24,832 nt of DNA, from the IMG/VR virus record IMGVR_UViG_2737471828_000007; one strand, 5' to 3'. Every line of letters starts with the position of its first letter. Positions within the stretch are counted from its first letter, which is position 1. The position numbers and the translations under genes were made by a program. This document shows, in pieces, positions 7,406 through 21,310 of the stretch. The DNA is from a virus. Its lineage: Duplodnaviria > Heunggongvirae > Uroviricota > Caudoviricetes. Below the pieces are notes generated by a model. That model had not been told where the DNA came from, searched no databases, and was given only the letters and a program-made list of their open reading frames with translations.

Positions 7406-7899
7406 CAGCACAACTCCGCAAAGATTCGTGGGCGGCACAGAATGTCAGAGATGGCCCAGCTCACATCACGCCACAAATCCGATGTCTGTATATCCAGTGC
7501 GTCCGCCCGGCGGTCGCCCTTGTCCGTTGTGTCTGCATCACGATAACGCTCCAGAATCAGGGCGCGCGTGGCGGTATAAACAGCATTGCGCCAGTGCCAG
7601 AGATTGACGCTTTCTCCGTTAATTACGGGTGCCGGAACATCGGCCAGCGTCTGATGGCCAGCCGCCTGCTGTTCCTGCTGCCATGCTTCCAGCTCGCGGG
7701 TAACGTGAGCCACCGCCCCGGTGGCGGTATGCAGCAGGCGGGAGGTGGTCACACGGCCCGGCAGTCGTATCGCCAGACGCAGCTCACGCAGCACAATATC
7801 CGGCCAGAATGCACCCGCTGAAATACGGGTATCACCATCATCGGTATCGGTGATGTCGTCCTCTGCGGGTCCGGGGTTGGTTCTGGCAACCATACTCAT
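7405..7899 (-). CDS. L: Head completion/stabilisation protein L (P2 gpL-like)
   Basis: Track ORF 7405..7908 (GTG first); ATG at 7899 with AGGAG 8 nt upstream; C-terminal ERYRDADTTDKGDRRADALD...LWRD resembles gpL. Confidence 0.8.
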   Translation of the reverse strand: MSMVARTNPGPAEDDITDTDDGDTRISAGAFWPDIVLRELRLAIRLPGRVTTSRLLHTATGAVAHVTRELEAWQQEQQAAGHQTLADVPAPVINGESVNLWHWRNAVYTATRALILERYRDADTTDKGDRRADALDIQTSDLWRDVSWAISDILCRPRIFAELC

Positions 7900-8000
7900 G
7901 GGGTTCACTCCTGAAAAAATCGGGCGGTGGGTGCGCGGTGTAAACGGTCACGGAGTCAAACCGGAACACCGCGCACGCCGCCCGCTGACGGGGTCAGTCG

Positions 8001-8801
8001 TTAACCGCGTTTCGCCTTCTGCGTCGCGGTGGTTTTTCGTGTTGCAGGCTTCCGCGTTGTCTTTTTACTTTTGCTGCTTTCGTCCTGCGCCTGCTGTGTG
8101 CTGGCGTCTTCTGGTGCGGCTGCGGAATCGGCTTTTTTCAGGGCGCGGGAAAGGGTTGCAATCTCGCGTTTCACACCTGCGTTCGGGTTCAGGTGCATTG
8201 CTTCGCGCAGCAGCTTCAGTGACAGGGCCATGCTGTCCGCATCACTCAGGCCACGGCGGGCAAAGGCGCACGCCTTGCATAATTTGGCGCGCACTTCGTC
8301 CGGCATGTCCTGGTCGGTGACAATCTCCCGGAGGGTGTCCAGTGGTTCGATAAAGGCGGACAAATCCGCGTCGGCATCCGTCCCGGCCTGCGTCAGTACC
8401 GGATTGCAGATTTCTTCGGTCAGCACTGTGGCAGCAGTACGGCCAAAGTTATCCGGCATGATGAGGTTGTGACGGACCACATACGCGCCGATACGCAGCG
8501 CAAGCGGAAGATCGCCGCAGTCAATCGCCCACACCATCAGTGTGGCAATCACTTCGTCCTGCTGCCCGCCGTCAGCCTCCAGCGTTCCCTCAATCCAGCC
8601 GGAAAAGTCCGGCAACAACTCTTTTTTGATGGCGGCTTTCGCGCTTCTGGCCTGTACGCCCTTAAGTCGGGCCTGTGCCAGACGCAGACGATACAGCACC
8701 TCTTCATGCGCGGTACGTGCGGCGTGATCCACGCCTTCATTCGCCCGGCCTGCGCGCTGCGCCATCACGTTCTGCCAGTGTTGCTGTGCAGGGGTAATCA
8801 T
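8001..8801 (-). CDS. M: Terminase endonuclease (small) subunit M (P2 gpM-like)
   Basis: 266 aa, basic C-terminal tail; position between N and L; ATG with GGAGAGAAAGA RBS. Confidence 0.85.
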   Translation of the reverse strand: MITPAQQHWQNVMAQRAGRANEGVDHAARTAHEEVLYRLRLAQARLKGVQARSAKAAIKKELLPDFSGWIEGTLEADGGQQDEVIATLMVWAIDCGDLPLALRIGAYVVRHNLIMPDNFGRTAATVLTEEICNPVLTQAGTDADADLSAFIEPLDTLREIVTDQDMPDEVRAKLCKACAFARRGLSDADSMALSLKLLREAMHLNPNAGVKREIATLSRALKKADSAAAPEDASTQQAQDESSKSKKTTRKPATRKTTATQKAKRG

Positions 8802-15552: not shown

Positions 15553-15867
15553 TCACTCTGGGAAAAATGACTGAATGTTCTTTCTTATCTCGCTAGTGCT
15601 GTGATTGCTTCCGGTGGCAGGTGCGCTGGCATATTTACTCTGAATATTATTCTTGGCTGGCGCAGCTCCTTCTTCCGGCCATTCGGCCAACCAATAGGCA
15701 AATGCAGGATCGCGTTTTATGAGTGCCAGCCCGGCCAGAAAGGCCGCGCGTTGCGCGCGGCTGCGTTCAGAGGCTGGCAGGCTGTCGAGGTAATTACACG
15801 CCTCCCGTTCACTATTGACGGCGACTGGCTTCAGATAGAAACTTATCCGTCTGGTTGGTGTCGTCAT
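15553..15867 (-). CDS. parR: ParR/StbB-like centromere-binding protein (type II partition adaptor)
   Basis: Track ORF 15553..16002; start placed at internal ATG (MTTPTRRISFYLKPVAV...) with AAGGAG RBS, 4 nt after the parM stop; ISFYLKP...LDSLPASERSRAQRAAFLAGLAL resembles plasmid R1 ParR (ribbon-helix-helix N-terminus). Confidence 0.75.
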   Translation of the reverse strand: MTTPTRRISFYLKPVAVNSEREACNYLDSLPASERSRAQRAAFLAGLALIKRDPAFAYWLAEWPEEGAAPAKNNIQSKYASAPATGSNHSTSEIRKNIQSFFPE

Positions 15868-15871
15868 TGGT

Positions 15872-16831
15872 TTACTCCTTGTCCATTGCGTACAGCCCAT
15901 TAACCAGAGCAAACTGTGGCACCCCGTCCGCGATGAAAGTCGCATTAACTCCGCAGGCTTCGCGGATAGCGGGTGCCACAATCTCCGCCCCGCCACCGAC
16001 AACCATCACCCGCCCGTAACCCGAAAAACCCGCCAGCGCGCGGATCACGCGTTGTTTCAGTGTTTCTTCCTTTTCACGAATAACCGCCATCAGGCTGGCG
16101 TAATGCGCGTCATTGTGGATGTGCTGGCGCAGCCAGGCTTCATCATGGCGATGTTCGATAATGGTATTGGCGATGTGGTGACTGGTGCGCATACCGTTAG
16201 TGGCCATCACCGACAGTACGGCATCGGCCATCAGAGAAACGCCTACGTGTGGATCGCAAAACATCTGGCTGATACCTGCCAGTTGCCCCTGAACCTTTGC
16301 CACATCCAGCGTGGTTCCGCCCAAATCCACAATCAGCAGGGATTCAAACGGACTCATGTCAGCCAGTGCCTTAAAGCCAGCCGGAATGGATTCAGGCATA
16401 ACCCGTACGTTACGGATAGTGAATGCTTCGCCGTTCTGGTACTCCACCGGGCGCATAACGTTCGCTTTTTTGCGGTTGATGTTGGTCATGTCCGGCTGTG
16501 CGTTTGTGTCGAAATACTCGCTCAGTGGCAGGGTGACAACCACATCCACCTCCTGTGGCGTGATGCCTGATTTGACCAGCGCGTGATGAATGGCAATGAC
16601 ATTCACATCGCTGTACTGGTATTGCGTGTCGGTCGTCTGGACAAAGCGATCGCTGACCGGATCAAAACCATAGCGCACGCCATCAAGCATATAGTTCGCG
16701 GGCTGCGTGCCACAGAACGGCGCAGACCATTCCGACTTGAAGCTGTTCGGGCTGATGGCGTTGCGGCGTTCGCCGTTCTCAGTCCATGCCAGCTTGATGT
16801 TGGTGGAGCCGTCGTCAATACAAATTTTCAT
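15872..16831 (-). CDS. parM: ParM/StbA-like actin-fold segregation ATPase (type II partition)
   Basis: 319 aa; hallmark ParM motifs IDDGSTNIK, ISPNSF, QYSDVNV..HHAL, VMPESIPAG, DLGGTTLD, GGGAE, LVNG; same length as R1 ParM. Confidence 0.85.
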   Translation of the reverse strand: MKICIDDGSTNIKLAWTENGERRNAISPNSFKSEWSAPFCGTQPANYMLDGVRYGFDPVSDRFVQTTDTQYQYSDVNVIAIHHALVKSGITPQEVDVVVTLPLSEYFDTNAQPDMTNINRKKANVMRPVEYQNGEAFTIRNVRVMPESIPAGFKALADMSPFESLLIVDLGGTTLDVAKVQGQLAGISQMFCDPHVGVSLMADAVLSVMATNGMRTSHHIANTIIEHRHDEAWLRQHIHNDAHYASLMAVIREKEETLKQRVIRALAGFSGYGRVMVVGGGAEIVAPAIREACGVNATFIADGVPQFALVNGLYAMDKE

Positions 16832-16860: not shown

Positions 16861-16975
16861 CGTTTACGGGATTCTGAAATCCCGTTTTTGCCTGTTTTAT
16901 GCGCGCTTCATATATCGCGGCGCGTTTTTTGCTCATTTACGGGATTTGTGAATCCCGTTTTTGTCTGTTTTTTGT
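16861..16975. repeat. parC-like repeat region upstream of parM: two direct repeats of about 38 bp, each with a perfect 8-bp inverted repeat, flanking a GC-rich palindrome
   Basis: TTTACGGGATTCTGAAATCCCGTTTTTGCCTGTTTT (about 16863..16900) and TTTACGGGATTTGTGAATCCCGTTTTTGTCTGTTTT (about 16936..16973), about 73 bp apart; each contains ACGGGATT-N4-AATCCCGT; between them CGCGC...GCGCG followed by T6. Overlaps the 3' end of the A ORF. Confidence 0.6.
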
Positions 16976-19733
16976 TTCCACTGGTCAGGCCACCCCGCAG
17001 CAGGTCTGCTTTGCGGCGGGCGCGTTCAGTGGTTTCACTGATTCTCTGTGCGTGCTCTGCGTCGCGGATGGCGCGCAGCATGTCAGAAAGCACGGTAACG
17101 GGTGTTTTCATGGTGTTCTGGTCTTGCTGAAGTGTGGATGCCAGGCGTGCGGCGGCTTCAGGGTCTGATACCCCAAGCTGTTCCAGATAGCTGGCGACCG
17201 GGTTATGGCGGATCTCCGTGCTGCTTACGCCGTGATTACGGCTCAGGCGTTGCCAGAGCTGCGTGATTCGGCTGTCCGGGCGGGTATCCGGTTTGCGTAC
17301 AATTTCAAATCCCTGCGGTGCAATGATGCTGCCGTCAACGTACAGACTGCCGCCCCGTAACAGGTGCTGCATCTGCTGTTCACCGATATGCAGGCCGAGA
17401 GATTCAGCAGACTCCCGCCATTCTTTAGCGAGTAATTCGTAGTTATCAGGCAAAGGCCGCTGCTGTTTGCGGCTCTGTGTCCAGCTCTGCATTTCATCAC
17501 TGCTGTTTTTTGCCTGTTTGTCACGAAGCGAACGCATCAGCGCCCGGCGTTCGTGCCGTTTCAGTGAGCGCATCCATTCGTTCACTTCAACGCCGTCAGG
17601 GAGCTGCGGCCACGGTGCTGGCCGTTCTTTCGGCTGTTCTGTCCCGTTGTTGTCCGTTTCCTGTACACGGGGACAGTTATTGCCACGAGTCCAAGGGGCG
17701 GCAGGGCCGCCCTGAAGGTCAAAACCATTTTCGCGGGCGCTGTCTTCCGCTTCCGGTTTACGTCTTACCAGCTTCCAGTTATCCGGATGCGTGCACACAC
17801 GGGAGGATTCCCCGATGAATGGCGACCAGATCCCGTAAATCTGTACACTCTGTTCGCCGTAATCGTTCAGCTCATCTGCGAGGTCGTAGGCTGTGCGAAT
17901 CAGGTAGTCCTTGCGCGGAACAAGTACGCCACCCTGTTTTTCAATGTAGGTGGCAAAACATCCGGCATCAGCGGCAGCGAGTACCGCATCCATTGCGTCA
18001 TCCTTCAGCCGTTGCGGGCCTTCCGGGTTGCGTGCCATCTGGCTGGCAAGGCGGCGCAGTTCACGCCACACCTGACGGGAGGGGATGCCAAAGAACTGGA
18101 ACTGGCGGACCCGATGAAGGCGCGCCCAGCCGATGGCGCGCTCCACGCTCTCGGCCATTGATTTTCCGGTTTCGTGGTCAACGCGTGGTTTGCCCGTTTT
18201 CGGGTCGATTCCATCCACGGCGCGGCTGTCCAGGTTTTTTCCGATGTAGGTGGCGATGTAGCTGGTTGGCGTGCCTTTGGAGCCGTCGACGTACTCCACC
18301 TTAAAGCGCGGAGTAATATCATTGCCCAGCTCGTGGCGGTCTTCCTGAATGGCAATATCGCGGGTGATGGCCACGATGCTGTCGATTTCTTCCGGATGAG
18401 CAAAGACCATCATATGCCAGTGCACGGTGCCGTCATGGTGAGGCTCCACCGTGCGGATGCCATACCAGCGCAGGCCGTCGCGGTTCAGTTTTTTGCGGAC
18501 CGCCGCAAAAAACGTGTTAACCAGGTAATCGCTGGAGTCGCGCATGGTGGCCCCGTTCCATTTGGGATTCGGATGACCGTTCTCTGTTGTGGCGTGGTAT
18601 TTTGACGGGCAGGTGACAGTCAGAAACACCGCTTTGTCGCCACGGGCTTCGGCCAGAAGTTCCAGTCCCTTCATGGTGGCCATCATTTCTGCCTTACGGT
18701 GAACCGGGTTACTTACTCCCGCGTAATACACTGTCTCGAGATCAATCGTGAAACCGTCTTCGTTTTCCAGTTCGAAGCTCTTCAGGAAGTCGCGGGTTTT
18801 CTCGCGCTGTGCGCGAAACTCGCTTAACGCGTCCTGGCTCAGATAGGGTGATGTTTTTCTGGAAACCAGACAGGCGGCGCGGAGTTGTTCTTCTCTCCAC
18901 TCACAACGTAACAGCCACAGTTTGCGTTTCCACCAGTCCGCACAGGTCAGGCGAAGGATTGCGCCCGGCAGCAGTTCCGTATCCGGTTCGCTCTTGTTCA
19001 GGGCTTCGTAATGTGGCGGCATGATGTGCAGGCGTAATGCGATACGAGCCAGCATCCGGTAAGCCTTCAACATTACATCCATGGTCAGCTCGCCATCTCT
19101 GGCACCAAAGCCATCGCAGAGTGTTTCGAAGGTGCTGCTGAACATCGCCGCGGTCATGGTGGCCAGCGTCTGTATCTGGTGCTTGTTGAGCTGCGGCAGG
19201 TAAAGCAAATCGTCCAGGCGTTCGCGCCCGGCAAGGGAGCGATAACCCGGTGTCAGCCAGCGTCCGTCAGTGCGATCCAGACGTTCGAATATTTTGCGCA
19301 GGGTTCCGCGTGCATAGCGTTCCGCCTGCCAGCTCTTTTTGCCTTTCTGGCGATCGGCTTCCTGTTTTTTGCGCAGGAAAGAGAGGTGGTGGCTCAGTGG
19401 TTCACGCAGATAAACAGGTAGTGCCTTTAGTGTGGCAAAGGCACGGGCTACCGGGTCTTGTTCTGTTGCCCGGCGCTTACTGATGATGCTCTGTGCCAGC
19501 TTTTCACGCTGTCCGGCTTCCTCAAGGGATGCCATGAGTTTTTTACCCATGGCGGATTGTGCGAAAAAGGCTTCTTCCTTCGCTCCCTGTTCTTCCTGTG
19601 CCCTTTTGTCCGCCTCAAGGTAGTAACGGATGGCGCGTTGCAGGTCGGTTTCAGTTTCCTGCCTGCGCTCCGTAAATCTGGCCGGATCAATGGCTGGCCG
19701 TGGTTCATTCCAGCTCCATGCAAACTCACTCAT
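16908..19733 (-). CDS. A: Replication initiation endonuclease A (rolling-circle, P2 gpA-like)
   Basis: Track ORF 16908..19760 (GTG first); ATG at 19733 abuts the stop of the upstream gene; conserved HHDGTVHWHMMVF metal-binding region and YIATYIGKN active-site tyrosine region typical of P2 A. Confidence 0.85.
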   Translation of the reverse strand: MSEFAWSWNEPRPAIDPARFTERRQETETDLQRAIRYYLEADKRAQEEQGAKEEAFFAQSAMGKKLMASLEEAGQREKLAQSIISKRRATEQDPVARAFATLKALPVYLREPLSHHLSFLRKKQEADRQKGKKSWQAERYARGTLRKIFERLDRTDGRWLTPGYRSLAGRERLDDLLYLPQLNKHQIQTLATMTAAMFSSTFETLCDGFGARDGELTMDVMLKAYRMLARIALRLHIMPPHYEALNKSEPDTELLPGAILRLTCADWWKRKLWLLRCEWREEQLRAACLVSRKTSPYLSQDALSEFRAQREKTRDFLKSFELENEDGFTIDLETVYYAGVSNPVHRKAEMMATMKGLELLAEARGDKAVFLTVTCPSKYHATTENGHPNPKWNGATMRDSSDYLVNTFFAAVRKKLNRDGLRWYGIRTVEPHHDGTVHWHMMVFAHPEEIDSIVAITRDIAIQEDRHELGNDITPRFKVEYVDGSKGTPTSYIATYIGKNLDSRAVDGIDPKTGKPRVDHETGKSMAESVERAIGWARLHRVRQFQFFGIPSRQVWRELRRLASQMARNPEGPQRLKDDAMDAVLAAADAGCFATYIEKQGGVLVPRKDYLIRTAYDLADELNDYGEQSVQIYGIWSPFIGESSRVCTHPDNWKLVRRKPEAEDSARENGFDLQGGPAAPWTRGNNCPRVQETDNNGTEQPKERPAPWPQLPDGVEVNEWMRSLKRHERRALMRSLRDKQAKNSSDEMQSWTQSRKQQRPLPDNYELLAKEWRESAESLGLHIGEQQMQHLLRGGSLYVDGSIIAPQGFEIVRKPDTRPDSRITQLWQRLSRNHGVSSTEIRHNPVASYLEQLGVSDPEAAARLASTLQQDQNTMKTPVTVLSDMLRAIRDAEHAQRISETTERARRKADLLRGGLTSGNKKQTKTGFTNPVNEQKTRRDI

Positions 19734-20119
19734 GGCTGGTATCCCGTCACGCGCTGCCACTCCTGCGAGAAGATGGCGGAAAGGCGGTTAAATTCAGCGG
19801 TGTATTCACTCAGCGAGGCACACCCGCCAGCAGTGCGATGCGCCAGCATTGCCGCAAATACGGAGGCCGGGGAGTCATAATACGCCAGCAGTGATTCGCC
19901 GTGTGGTGTCAGGCAGTGCAACGCCAGCCCGTGTGGTGTGAAATCCACGCGGTAGCAGTCGTCTACTGTGAAATAAAGGGTGTCCGCATTCTCCGGTTTT
20001 GTGGTGCGTGCTCTGTTGTCACGACCACGGATGTAGAGATCAAATAATCCCTGAAGAATGGGAGCCAGACGGGTGTCCTGTGTGCGCACCCATCTTGTGA
20101 AGTCATGAGCGTCAATCAT
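19730..20119 (-). CDS. Hypothetical early protein (129 aa) immediately upstream of A
   Basis: ATG at 20119; stop abuts the A start; position equivalent to P2 orf82/orf83; no family recognised. Confidence 0.6.
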   Translation of the reverse strand: MIDAHDFTRWVRTQDTRLAPILQGLFDLYIRGRDNRARTTKPENADTLYFTVDDCYRVDFTPHGLALHCLTPHGESLLAYYDSPASVFAAMLAHRTAGGCASLSEYTAEFNRLSAIFSQEWQRVTGYQP

Positions 20120-20191
20120 GCTGCAATTCTCTTTACTACAGGTGTGCGAAGGCCTCCCGCCGCAAGGTGCAGGAAAGGCCTGGAACAGGAA

Positions 20192-20422
20192 TTAATGGAG
20201 TTTGTTTTGCTGCTGAAAGAGCTGCTGAAGCTCGCGCAGATCATCCGCCAGATAGCTGAAAACAGCGGATGAATAGAGGTTTGAAAGTTCGCAGCTACGC
20301 TCATGCAGCATATTGATGTGCATGATTTTAGCGACGCGGAATGCGCGGGAAAGTCTGCGGTTGATTTCAGTCTGGATGTGACGACGCTCCGCGATAGCGC
20401 GGTGCTGTTTGCGGTTTGCCAT
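20192..20422 (-). CDS. Hypothetical small basic protein (76 aa)
   Basis: ATG at 20422; N-terminus Arg/Lys-rich (MANRKQHRAIAERRH...); lies downstream of a predicted terminator and structured non-coding island. Confidence 0.5.
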   Translation of the reverse strand: MANRKQHRAIAERRHIQTEINRRLSRAFRVAKIMHINMLHERSCELSNLYSSAVFSYLADDLRELQQLFQQQNKLH

Positions 20423-20439
20423 GGTGTTTGGCCTCTTCG

Positions 20440-20660
20440 TTTGTGAGTTTTTGGATACTCACCAACCAGAGTTGAGAATCTCGGGGTGGCGAGACGTACG
20501 GGGTTCTCAACACCGGCAAACGAAGAAACCGGCCCGACCGAAGTCGGCCCCGTACGCCCCACCATAATTCGTGTGCGAAAAAGACGTGGCAATACAGTAC
20601 GCACAAAAAAACCGCTGGCGCGGTTGTGCGCTTCGTTTGTCAGCAGGTTGAGAATCCCGG
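20440..20660 (-). ncRNA. Candidate structured non-coding element inside the early operon (nested inverted repeats, repeated GTTGAGAATC motif, stable tetraloop hairpin)
   Basis: No credible ORF; GTTGAGAATC at about 20471 and 20648 (direct) and inverted at about 20503; 9-bp inverted repeat CGTACGGGG/CCCCGTACG (about 20495 and 20548) enclosing hairpin GGCCCGAC-CGAA-GTCGGCCC, which reads as a UUCG-loop hairpin on the minus (transcribed) strand. Strand and nature (RNA versus DNA site) not established. Confidence 0.35.
20603..20625 (-). terminator. Intrinsic terminator within the early region (minus strand)
   Basis: Stem AACCGC/GCGGTT with 4-nt loop, followed on the minus strand by T7-8. Confidence 0.6.
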
Positions 20661-20747
20661 CACCCGTTTTATGAGGTGCAGCAGAAATGTAACCTGACTG
20701 ATTGCGGCATGGCAAGCGGTTTTTTTGTGTGTGCATGCTCTGATTTC

Positions 20748-21047
20748 TTACTGGTTCAGAAAAAAATCAAAAACCTTGTCAATGCGTTGCAACAGCTCTT
20801 GCTGTATTGCTTCCGGCGTTTCCGGTTCGCCTGGCGCCTCCAATGTCGCGCAGAAATCAGCGATTTCATGATGGAGCGTCAGGCGAATGGCAGGAGCCGT
20901 GGTTCTGGCGTGCTCCAGCTCATCCAGCAATGCCAGCACCGCAGACGGCGAGAGCATTGCGCGAAATGCCAGTAATTTTTGAGGTGTTGCCATTCGTTGC
21001 AGGGCAAATGCCAGTTCGCGTAGCTTCTGGTGGTTGATGGTGCTCAT
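20748..21047 (-). CDS. Hypothetical early protein (99 aa)
   Basis: ATG with AGGAAG RBS; overlaps the stop of the upstream gene. Confidence 0.6.
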   Translation of the reverse strand: MSTINHQKLRELAFALQRMATPQKLLAFRAMLSPSAVLALLDELEHARTTAPAIRLTLHHEIADFCATLEAPGEPETPEAIQQELLQRIDKVFDFFLNQ

Positions 21048-21310
21048 GTTCTGGCTTCCTTCAGTAGCTGGTTAAACATGTGAGTCAGTGGATTGCTACA
21101 CCCGAACGGCATCGGGTTTACGTGGTAAGAAGCCTGGCCTCCAGTTTTGCGAGCGCGACCACCTGTGCTGCGGTTTGTTCTGATGACTAAGCCGCCGCGC
21201 CAAAGTTGGCGTAACTCAGCATTAATGGCTGTGGTTGGAGTATTCAGTGCTGCTGCGATTTCTCCGCCGCTACAACCCGGATGGGTAGCGATGTAGTCCA
21301 GAATGGTCAT
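21044..21310 (-). CDS. Putative winged-helix DNA-binding protein (88 aa)
   Basis: ILDYIATHPGCSGGEIAAALNTPTTAINAELRQLWRGGLV is a typical helix-turn-helix/wing pattern; ATG at 21310. Confidence 0.6.
   Translation of the reverse strand: MTILDYIATHPGCSGGEIAAALNTPTTAINAELRQLWRGGLVIRTNRSTGGRARKTGGQASYHVNPMPFGCSNPLTHMFNQLLKEART

Follow-up and report, generated by a model that had tools for sequence, protein, structure and literature searches.

The window analysed here is a 24,832-nucleotide stretch of viral DNA (IMG/VR record IMGVR_UViG_2737471828_000007), and represents a P88-type prophage of the P2 family (genus Xuanwuvirus). Its early operon lies on the minus strand, in the order cox, several small open reading frames (ORFs), a MarR-like ORF, a 99-amino acid (99-aa) ORF, an island, a 76-aa ORF, a 129-aa ORF and gene A. 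The island is a gap of 325 bp (20423-20747) between the end of the 99-aa ORF at 20748 and the start of the 76-aa ORF at 20422, as described in an initial annotation made from the sequence alone. A mechanically called 206-aa ORF (20736..20116, minus strand) spans the interval, which is therefore a gap only if this ORF is not a gene; the evidence, given below, indicates that it is not. The covariance-model search that the initial annotation had suggested was carried out against Rfam, and gave exactly two matches above the gathering score in the window, an isrK-like RNA and a C4-like RNA, both on the minus strand and both within the gap. The island is proposed to be a self-contained antisense-RNA immunity cassette with homologues in satellite P4 (the seqA-CI-seqC region) and in P1 and P7 (the c4 region), and we put the probability of this at roughly 0.8. 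The features of the cassette, in the direction of transcription, are:

20712..20732, minus strand: A-tract element, ACACACAAAAAAACCGCUUGC, directly 5' of the -35 hexamer of the isrK promoter and overlapping it by 4 nt
20715..20686, minus strand: putative sigma-70-type promoter of isrK from a consensus scan, with -35 TTGCCA (20715..20710), an 18-nt spacer and -10 TACATT (20691..20686)
20679..20605, minus strand: isrK-like leader RNA (Rfam RF01394, 62.0 bits, gathering cut-off 50, E 2.8e-11, covering model positions 1-77 of 77)
20647..20659, minus strand: b1, CGGGAUUCUCAAC, in the second isrK hairpin, 12 of 13 bases paired with C4 b'
20631..20639, minus strand: a1, CAAACGAAG, in a single-stranded isrK linker, complementary to C4 loop a'
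20603..20625, minus strand: intrinsic terminator of isrK, AACCGC-GCCA-GCGGUU and then a U-tract, where GGUUUUUUU gives seven consecutive U
20569..20482, minus strand: C4/CI-type antisense RNA (Rfam RF01695, clan CL00128, 79.2 bits, gathering cut-off 45, E 2.9e-14, covering model positions 1-87 of 87)
20517..20528, minus strand: a' loop of C4, UUUCUUCGUUUG
20504..20511, minus strand: b' junction of C4, GUUGAGAA; its helix with b1 runs on into CCCCG, to 20499
20471..20482, minus strand: b2, GAGAUUCUCAAC, downstream target of b', beginning at the last base of C4
20443..20462, minus strand: leader hairpin GUGAGU-(8 nt)-ACUCAC, 6 bp, between b2 and a2
20432..20443, minus strand: a2, CAAACGAAGAGG, downstream target of a'

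The C4 RNA has the architecture of its family: a closing stem, here of 17 bp, surrounds two hairpins, one of them cUUCGg and the other bearing loop a'. The stem and the cUUCGg hairpin explain the 9-bp long-range inverted repeat around a tetraloop hairpin that had been noted initially: the repeat CGTACGGGG/CCCCGTACG is a portion of a 17-nt arm pair (20487-20503 with 20548-20564), which encloses the cUUCGg hairpin and forms the closing stem. The 10-bp motif reported as occurring twice in direct and once in inverted orientation is also present. The sequence GTTGAGAATC occurs exactly at 20471-20480 and 20647-20656, and inverted, with one mismatch (GTTGAGAACC), at 20502-20511. These are the only three matches in the window and all lie inside 186 bp, but the count as such is not significant window-wide, three or more matches being found in 24 of 100 shuffles. 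The inverted copy is the b' junction of C4, and the direct copies are its targets b1, in isrK, and b2, just after C4.

A second triple was absent from the list in the initial annotation. The sequence CAAACGAAG occurs at 20435-20443 (minus strand), 20517-20525 (plus strand) and 20631-20639 (minus strand), giving three exact matches where 0.24 are expected, and none of 100 shuffles contained as many. This triple consists of loop a' of C4 and its targets a1, in the isrK linker, and a2, before the 76-aa ORF. All 12 bases of a2 pair with a', including two G-U pairs, and the 3' half of a2 is the Shine-Dalgarno sequence (GAGG) of the 76-aa ORF, 9 nt ahead of its AUG at 20422. Between b' and b2 eight contiguous bases pair (nine of ten in the 11-locus comparison described below). 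The leader hairpin puts b2 and a2 about as near to each other as b1 and a1 are in isrK, which suggests that its role may be a geometric one. The initial annotation thus missed two described RNA families, a second complementary set, and the overlap with the ribosome-binding site, and the element is less novel than it implied, since both RNA families have been described already.

The complementarities were followed in relatives at two distances. Eleven loci were first taken from four groups, consisting of P88-type phages, P4, two Stx-phage types, and other lambdoid phages. In all 11, a' is complementary to a1 and a2, and b' to b1 and b2, despite the differences in sequence from group to group, and in all 11, P4 included, a2 ends in GAGG or GGAGG just ahead of a start codon. 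For the close set, 80 viral contigs encoding the 76-aa protein at 87% identity or more were combined with the loci already collected, and 47 distinct cassettes were aligned. The three C4 helices are paired in 99.9%, 100% and 100% of cases, and five of their pairs are altered on both sides. Compensatory changes occur in seven of the 12 pairs of a'-a2, four of the eight of b'-b2, seven of the nine of a1-a' (where 100% of cells are paired) and four of the eight of b1-b'. Overall, 95-96% of cells are paired, compared to 25-55% when the partner is slid by one to three columns; for the pairings between isrK and C4 (a1-a' and b1-b') the values are 95.5% and 26-55%. The leader hairpin (20462..20443) is paired in 92% of cases, with changes on one side only.

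The variation in the close set is concentrated in the pairing segments, with a mean identity of 69% in the 60 specificity columns and 93% in the other 256. There are 14 distinct a-triplets and five distinct b-triplets, in 17 combinations. G-U pairs are present in the loop-target interactions, which suggests that the pairing takes place at the RNA level on the minus strand and is not a matter of DNA recognition. Judged from these alignments, the covariation is the pattern expected of heteroimmune antisense systems. An absence of conservation of the paired regions in relatives had been named at the outset as grounds for abandoning the idea of a structured element; the regions are both conserved and compensated. 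The C4 type of P88, with a' CUGUAGUUG and b' UGUGGAAA, is an example of one that is heterotypic to that of the window. The a- and b-types also mix, the a' segment GAUCUCUUGUAG occurring with three different b' segments, and this suggests either recombination between the loops or independent diversification of each.

The alignment has a sharp left boundary at CACAAAAAAACCGC (alignment columns 1-50, window approximately 20733-20765). On its upstream side the relatives split into no fewer than four classes of unrelated sequence, and the genes found there differ as well: the window has an Ead/Ea22-like ORF and P88 a lipoprotein/serine-protease gene, to name two. The cassette thus behaves like a module.

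The isrK-like RNA consists of two 5' hairpins followed by a Rho-independent terminator, and is the counterpart of the P4 seqA region and of the a1/b1 element of c4 systems. The Rfam model for the latter (RF03163, c4-a1b1) had no match in the window; P4 scored 44.1 against its cut-off of 46.7. The start of the RNA at 20679 is 7 nt downstream of the -10 hexamer. The promoter sequence is invariant in the 47 relatives, and a promoter-like pair is found equally far from the isrK start in P4 (TTGCCT/TATAGT), in the Stx phage PA2 (TTGACT/TATATT) and in PhiR49_2 (TTGATT/TACACT); the promoter is predicted to be active. The intrinsic terminator on the transcribed strand that was noted initially is the isrK terminator, with a minus-strand stem at 20625..20610 followed by seven U. 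Its stem is invariant in the 47 relatives, and is replaced by other, still paired, stems in P4 and the Stx phages. At sequence level, isrK thus has its own promoter and its own Rho-independent terminator, both conserved in relatives. Binding of Hfq is a trait of the isrK family. A second promoter-like site (TTGCCA, 17 nt, AATTAT; 20592..20564, minus strand) ends within the 5' end of C4. It is a match to the consensus alone, many relatives have TCGCCA in place of its -35 hexamer, P4 lacks such a site, and it is probably not a conserved promoter.

The closest known system is that of P4, whose seqA leader and CI RNA are equated with IsrK and C4 in the literature (PMC3632133, PMC4825925). There, processing of the leader releases the CI RNA, whose pairing with seqA and seqC leads to termination before the replication genes (PMC3632133, PMC4825925), and the pair of isrK and C4 elements confers immunity, that is, repression (PMC3632133). 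The systems of P4, P1, P7 and N15 are structurally similar (PMC3632133). In the P4 genome, the same Rfam models locate C4 at 8507..8420 (74.9 bits, the CI RNA) and isrK at 8692..8615 (60.8 bits, the seqA leader), followed by epsilon at 8175..7888 and then alpha. The two models therefore match P4 and the window in the same order and on the same strand, with a promoter equally far from the isrK start. In both, the loop and junction segments of C4 match one upstream and one downstream target, the a-type downstream target covers the ribosome-binding site (GGAGG in P4), an epsilon-family gene lies downstream, and a replication gene stands at the end of the operon. The full order in P4 is the PLE promoter, seqA, CI RNA, seqC, epsilon, orf151 and alpha.

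There are also clear differences. The element in the window is a full-size P2-family phage with structural genes and not a satellite, and its replication gene encodes the P2 gpA nickase (PF05840) in place of the alpha primase-helicase. The epsilon-like ORF comes directly after C4, whereas in P4 another ORF starts after seqC and epsilon is approximately 245 nt past C4; the spacer between isrK and C4 is 35 nt in the window and 107 nt in P4. The cassette in the window sits inside the operon of a C-repressed early promoter, while that of P4 heads its own operon, and the epsilon proteins are only 29% identical.

In P1 and P7, the immI region (c4 antisense RNA, icd and ant) supplied the founding members of Rfam family RF01695. 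From the work of Citron and Schuster in 1990 and later studies, a' and b' of c4 are said to bind a2 and b2, which lie at the ribosome-binding site of the first ORF downstream, and thereby to block the anti-repressor by polarity. The same systems reportedly have upstream look-alike sites a1 and b1, and reportedly achieve heteroimmunity by changes in the loop sequences. The downstream genes are unrelated, being icd and ant in P1 and P7 and the epsilon-like ORF, the 129-aa ORF and gene A in the window.

P2 and 186 share with the window the int-C-cox layout and a gpA-type replication gene that ends the early operon, and in 186 a small ORF is coupled to A. Neither has an isrK or C4 match in Rfam or an epsilon-like gene in its early region. 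The initial remark that P2 has no comparable gap is correct, the largest gap in its early operon being approximately 63 bp. The anti-repressor of 186 is the LexA-controlled Tum, and P2 has none.

The genes downstream of the cassette, all on the same strand, are:

20192..20422, minus strand: 76-aa ORF, member of the epsilon or 'derepression protein' family of P4 (PF25738, 29.3 bits, gathering cut-off 27)
19730..20119, minus strand: 129-aa ORF, function unassigned (phrog_3237), from RefSeq and PHROG
16908..19760, minus strand: gene A, P2-type rolling-circle replication endonuclease (Pfam PF05840, 433 bits), with the RefSeq start at 19733

The 76-aa ORF has 29% identity to P4 epsilon (BLASTP, E 1e-8) and carries the RefSeq name 'derepression protein'. 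By analogy with P4 and P1, it would be the gene directly controlled by the cassette, and its product would be an anti-repressor. The repressor of the prophage is 52% identical to P2 C, which is the protein inactivated by P4 epsilon. No similarity was found between the 129-aa ORF and P4 orf151. The 129-aa ORF overlaps gene A by 31 nt if the mechanical GTG start at 19760 is used, or by 4 nt if the RefSeq one at 19733 is, which suggests that the two are translationally coupled in the way annotated for orf84 and A of phage 186. Gene A, whose product belongs to a different family of replication proteins from P4 alpha, is likely to be the last gene touched by polarity from the cassette.

The following mechanism is suggested by these features. 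Transcription from the conserved promoter (20715..20686) would start a 75-nt isrK-like RNA, and most transcripts would stop at its terminator. Those that read through, together with transcripts from the upstream early promoter, would contain the 88-nt C4-like RNA. RNAs of the C4 family are excised by RNase P from a longer transcript and trimmed at the 3' end, to give a stable RNA of approximately 77-90 nt, and on the model of P1 and P4 the C4 described here would be released likewise, as a small RNA that is stable and tRNA-like. The a' and b' segments of C4 are predicted, from the comparative pairing, to bind a2 and b2 in the leader directly downstream. Pairing at a2 would hide the Shine-Dalgarno sequence of the epsilon-like ORF and so prevent its translation; the untranslated leader would then be open to premature, probably Rho-dependent, termination, which would in turn silence the translationally coupled 129-aa ORF and gene A. 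Of this scheme, the promoter, the terminator, the presence of C4 in longer transcripts and the pairing over the ribosome-binding site are supported by sequence and comparison, whereas the excision of C4, the block of translation, the action of Rho and the anti-repressor activity of the 76-aa protein are drawn from characterised relatives. The look-alike targets b1 and a1 in isrK might aid C4 on the nascent transcript, as in P4 seqA, or titrate it, as in Gifsy-1 IsrK. The initial annotation had offered three readings of the island. A processed small RNA is in keeping with the homology to C4/CI and regulated termination with the homology to P4 and Gifsy-1, while an array of protein-binding sites did not survive.

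Several points weigh against an immunity cassette of this kind. Processing, termination and the translational block are all carried over from relatives. The assignment of the 76-aa ORF to the epsilon family is barely above threshold (29.3 against 27 bits), and its function in this clade is a prediction from sequence. The isrK element is needed for immunity in P4 but is an activator in Gifsy-1, and the sequence does not choose between the two. The isrK hairpins and terminator show no covariation in the close set, being conserved or changed on one side only, so that their support comes from the Rfam model and from distant relatives. Finally, the mechanism does not account for the passage of early-promoter transcripts through the isrK terminator and on to gene A, which lytic growth requires.

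The role of isrK is where the strongest rival lies. In the lambdoid phage Gifsy-1 of Salmonella, isrK has its own promoter and a leaky terminator, and is followed by the anti-repressor gene anrP (PMC4825925). The interval between isrK and anrP ('orf45') is conserved at the nucleotide but not the protein level, is complementary to the middle of IsrK, and yields a processed RNA of approximately 80 nt, STnc1160 (PMC4825925). The window has the same arrangement of an isrK RNA, a segment for a predicted RNA of about that size that is complementary to it, and a putative anti-repressor gene next; lambdoid and Stx phages also carry the pair of isrK and C4. In the published model, IsrK is an activator and the C4 region is a translated leader ORF. 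AnrP is not epsilon-like, and no replication gene is found downstream. IsrK in its short form works in trans by pairing with the orf45 region, and raises translation of the anti-repressor approximately 140-fold (PMC4825925). Applied to the window, this logic would have the short isrK RNA activate translation of the epsilon-like ORF in trans under stress, as an anti-antisense or structure-opening RNA, with C4 serving mainly as a cis structure that keeps the read-through mRNA inactive. When the transcript from isrK to the AUG was folded, b1 and a1 of isrK indeed paired in cis with b' and a' of C4, like 'structure A' of Gifsy-1. The complete pairing of a1 with a' in the relatives and the inducibility of P88 with mitomycin C (PMC5285337) point the same way. 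However, the same two elements repress in P4 (PMC3632133), and the pairing of a' with a2 over the Shine-Dalgarno sequence covaries equally strongly, as a repressor role of C4 predicts; the sequence of the locus says nothing about the stoichiometry of the two RNAs. We regard dominance of the Gifsy-1 logic as a serious possibility that falls somewhat short of an even chance, and in any case it is a variant of the immunity cassette and not an alternative to it.

The difficulty of a terminator inside the operon would be solved if termination depended on the promoter used. The A-tract element is complementary in 19 of its 21 positions, 15 of them contiguous, to the terminator of isrK at its 3' arm and U-tract (20599-20619), and the resulting 21-nt inverted repeat (20712-20732/20599-20619) brackets the isrK promoter and most of isrK. 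The element (20732..20712) would be present only in transcripts from the early promoter, where it would pair with the terminator arm and U-tract and allow read-through to gene A, while transcripts from the isrK promoter would stop. In the minimum-energy fold of 20745..20598 the terminator hairpin gives way to this long-range helix (-54.8 kcal/mol, z -4.7). The element is also invariant in the 47 relatives, although the sequence directly 5' of it diverges. Against this, both arms are invariant, so covariation cannot support the pairing; the adjacent 5' arm of the terminator should win kinetically; and the A run lies at -47..-41, which is the location of a proximal UP element, and would complement any U-tract trivially. 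An antiterminator conserved across groups was rejected, as the complement is missing in P4, in loci L009, L010 and L011 and in most lambdoid cassettes, and the partial one in PA2 fails to track the change of terminator in L009. The inverted repeat could be an antiterminator for upstream transcripts or merely a UP-like A-tract, and we consider promoter-dependent termination to be unlikely.

A more elaborate picture combines several of these ideas, and is offered as speculation that is doubtful when taken as a whole. The cassette of P88-like phages may provide a second, RNA-based layer of immunity that is hypervariable and gates both gene A and an epsilon-type anti-repressor directed against the phage's own P2-C-like repressor. 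Its mix-and-match types (at least 14 a and five b, in near-identical phages) might then decide cross-repression and cross-induction among co-resident P2-like prophages or P4-like satellites, and the 21-nt element might make the internal terminator promoter-specific, the early promoter reading through and the isrK promoter stopping.

The reading in which the gap codes for a protein, namely an 'Ash family' or P4 'cI'-like regulatory protein given by the 206-aa ORF, is very improbable. A stop-free frame does cross the cassette in 44 of the 47 relatives, there are weak matches to Pfam Phage_ASH and to PHROG families of transcriptional repressors or regulators, and some RefSeq/GenBank records annotate an 'ash family protein' here. 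However, the score for PF10554 Phage_ASH is below gathering (20.3 against 26 bits), the variable columns show no excess at the third codon position (35, 44 and 44 for positions 1, 2 and 3), and the open frame is not conserved, being a different one in seven of the 44 stop-free relatives, with indels of 1 and 2 nt; on these three grounds the reading was rejected. Furthermore, the variation clusters in the RNA-complementary segments, and 300 nt of the ORF lie over the epsilon-like gene in another frame. In P4, a 137-aa 'cI gene product' coding sequence in RefSeq (8168-8584) similarly sits over the CI RNA gene, and the CI determinant was reportedly identified as an RNA by Forti et al. in 2002. 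The Phage_ASH and PHROG repressor families are most likely artefacts of translating a conserved RNA gene.

That the repeated 10-mers are DNA operators, forming an array of binding sites for a phage protein, is scarcely credible despite the three copies in direct and inverted orientation within 186 bp, and was rejected because the covariation, with its G-U pairs, is of the RNA type: the inverted copy falls within a structured RNA gene, the copies vary in concert so as to stay complementary, with G-U tolerated and with five b-types and 14 a-types among phages with near-identical proteins, and a binding protein would have to covary with them, whereas no variable gene was noted beside the cassette (no dedicated test was made) and the non-target part of the cassette is 93% identical.

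The cassette is concluded to be real and probably functional but of a known kind, consisting of two curated RNA families in a well-studied system, with no new principle. In the literature, no description of it in P88-type phages was found; the P88 genome paper (PMC5285337) is silent on it, and the Xuanwuvirus papers found were unrelated. The RefSeq annotation that was checked leaves the 325-bp gap empty, with no RNA feature, and other records place a doubtful 'ash family' or hypothetical protein there. The main value of the result is thus in annotation, in the link between helper and satellite, and in the covariation data set. The RNA immunity switch of satellite P4, plasmid-prophage P1 and lambdoid prophages is present also in helper-type P2-family phages, where it is wired to an epsilon-like gene and gene A. 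This suggests how P88-like phages, unlike P2, could be inducible, and how a helper and its satellite might share an immunity system or compete for it, and the clean three-way covariation makes the clade a natural data set for RNA-based heteroimmunity.

A 1-kb region containing the cassette matches 1422 of 5426 complete E. coli genomes. This query (20100-21100) is 100% identical to E. coli 23CRST001, in a prophage beside pheL and pheA, and 87-93% identical to P88, P884B11 and other phages. A search of genome contigs with the 76-aa protein gave only three close relatives. The particular specificity of the window, as an exact 31-nt a'/b' pattern, was found in nine viral contigs only. The idea that this specificity occurs in other kinds of element was rejected, as three of the nine (L096, L102 and L103) are P88-type and the other six are from contigs retrieved via the epsilon-like ORF.

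A contig labelled Vagococcus sp. WN89Y (L005) has a cassette of the P88 type, with an epsilon-like gene that is 83% identical to its E. coli counterpart, and is probably contamination or a mislabelled enterobacterial contig. In the 100%-matching genome (L094, 19870-21001), the tail-fibre assembly gene by the window start (1-100) is annotated as partial and is followed by an IS4-like ISVsa5 transposase, so that this copy of the prophage is possibly a truncated, defective one. Although the prophage is an integrated one, gene A in the window is directly followed (approximately 15553-16831, minus strand) by a ParM-type plasmid segregation gene with a partition/stability gene, and the same is true of P88.

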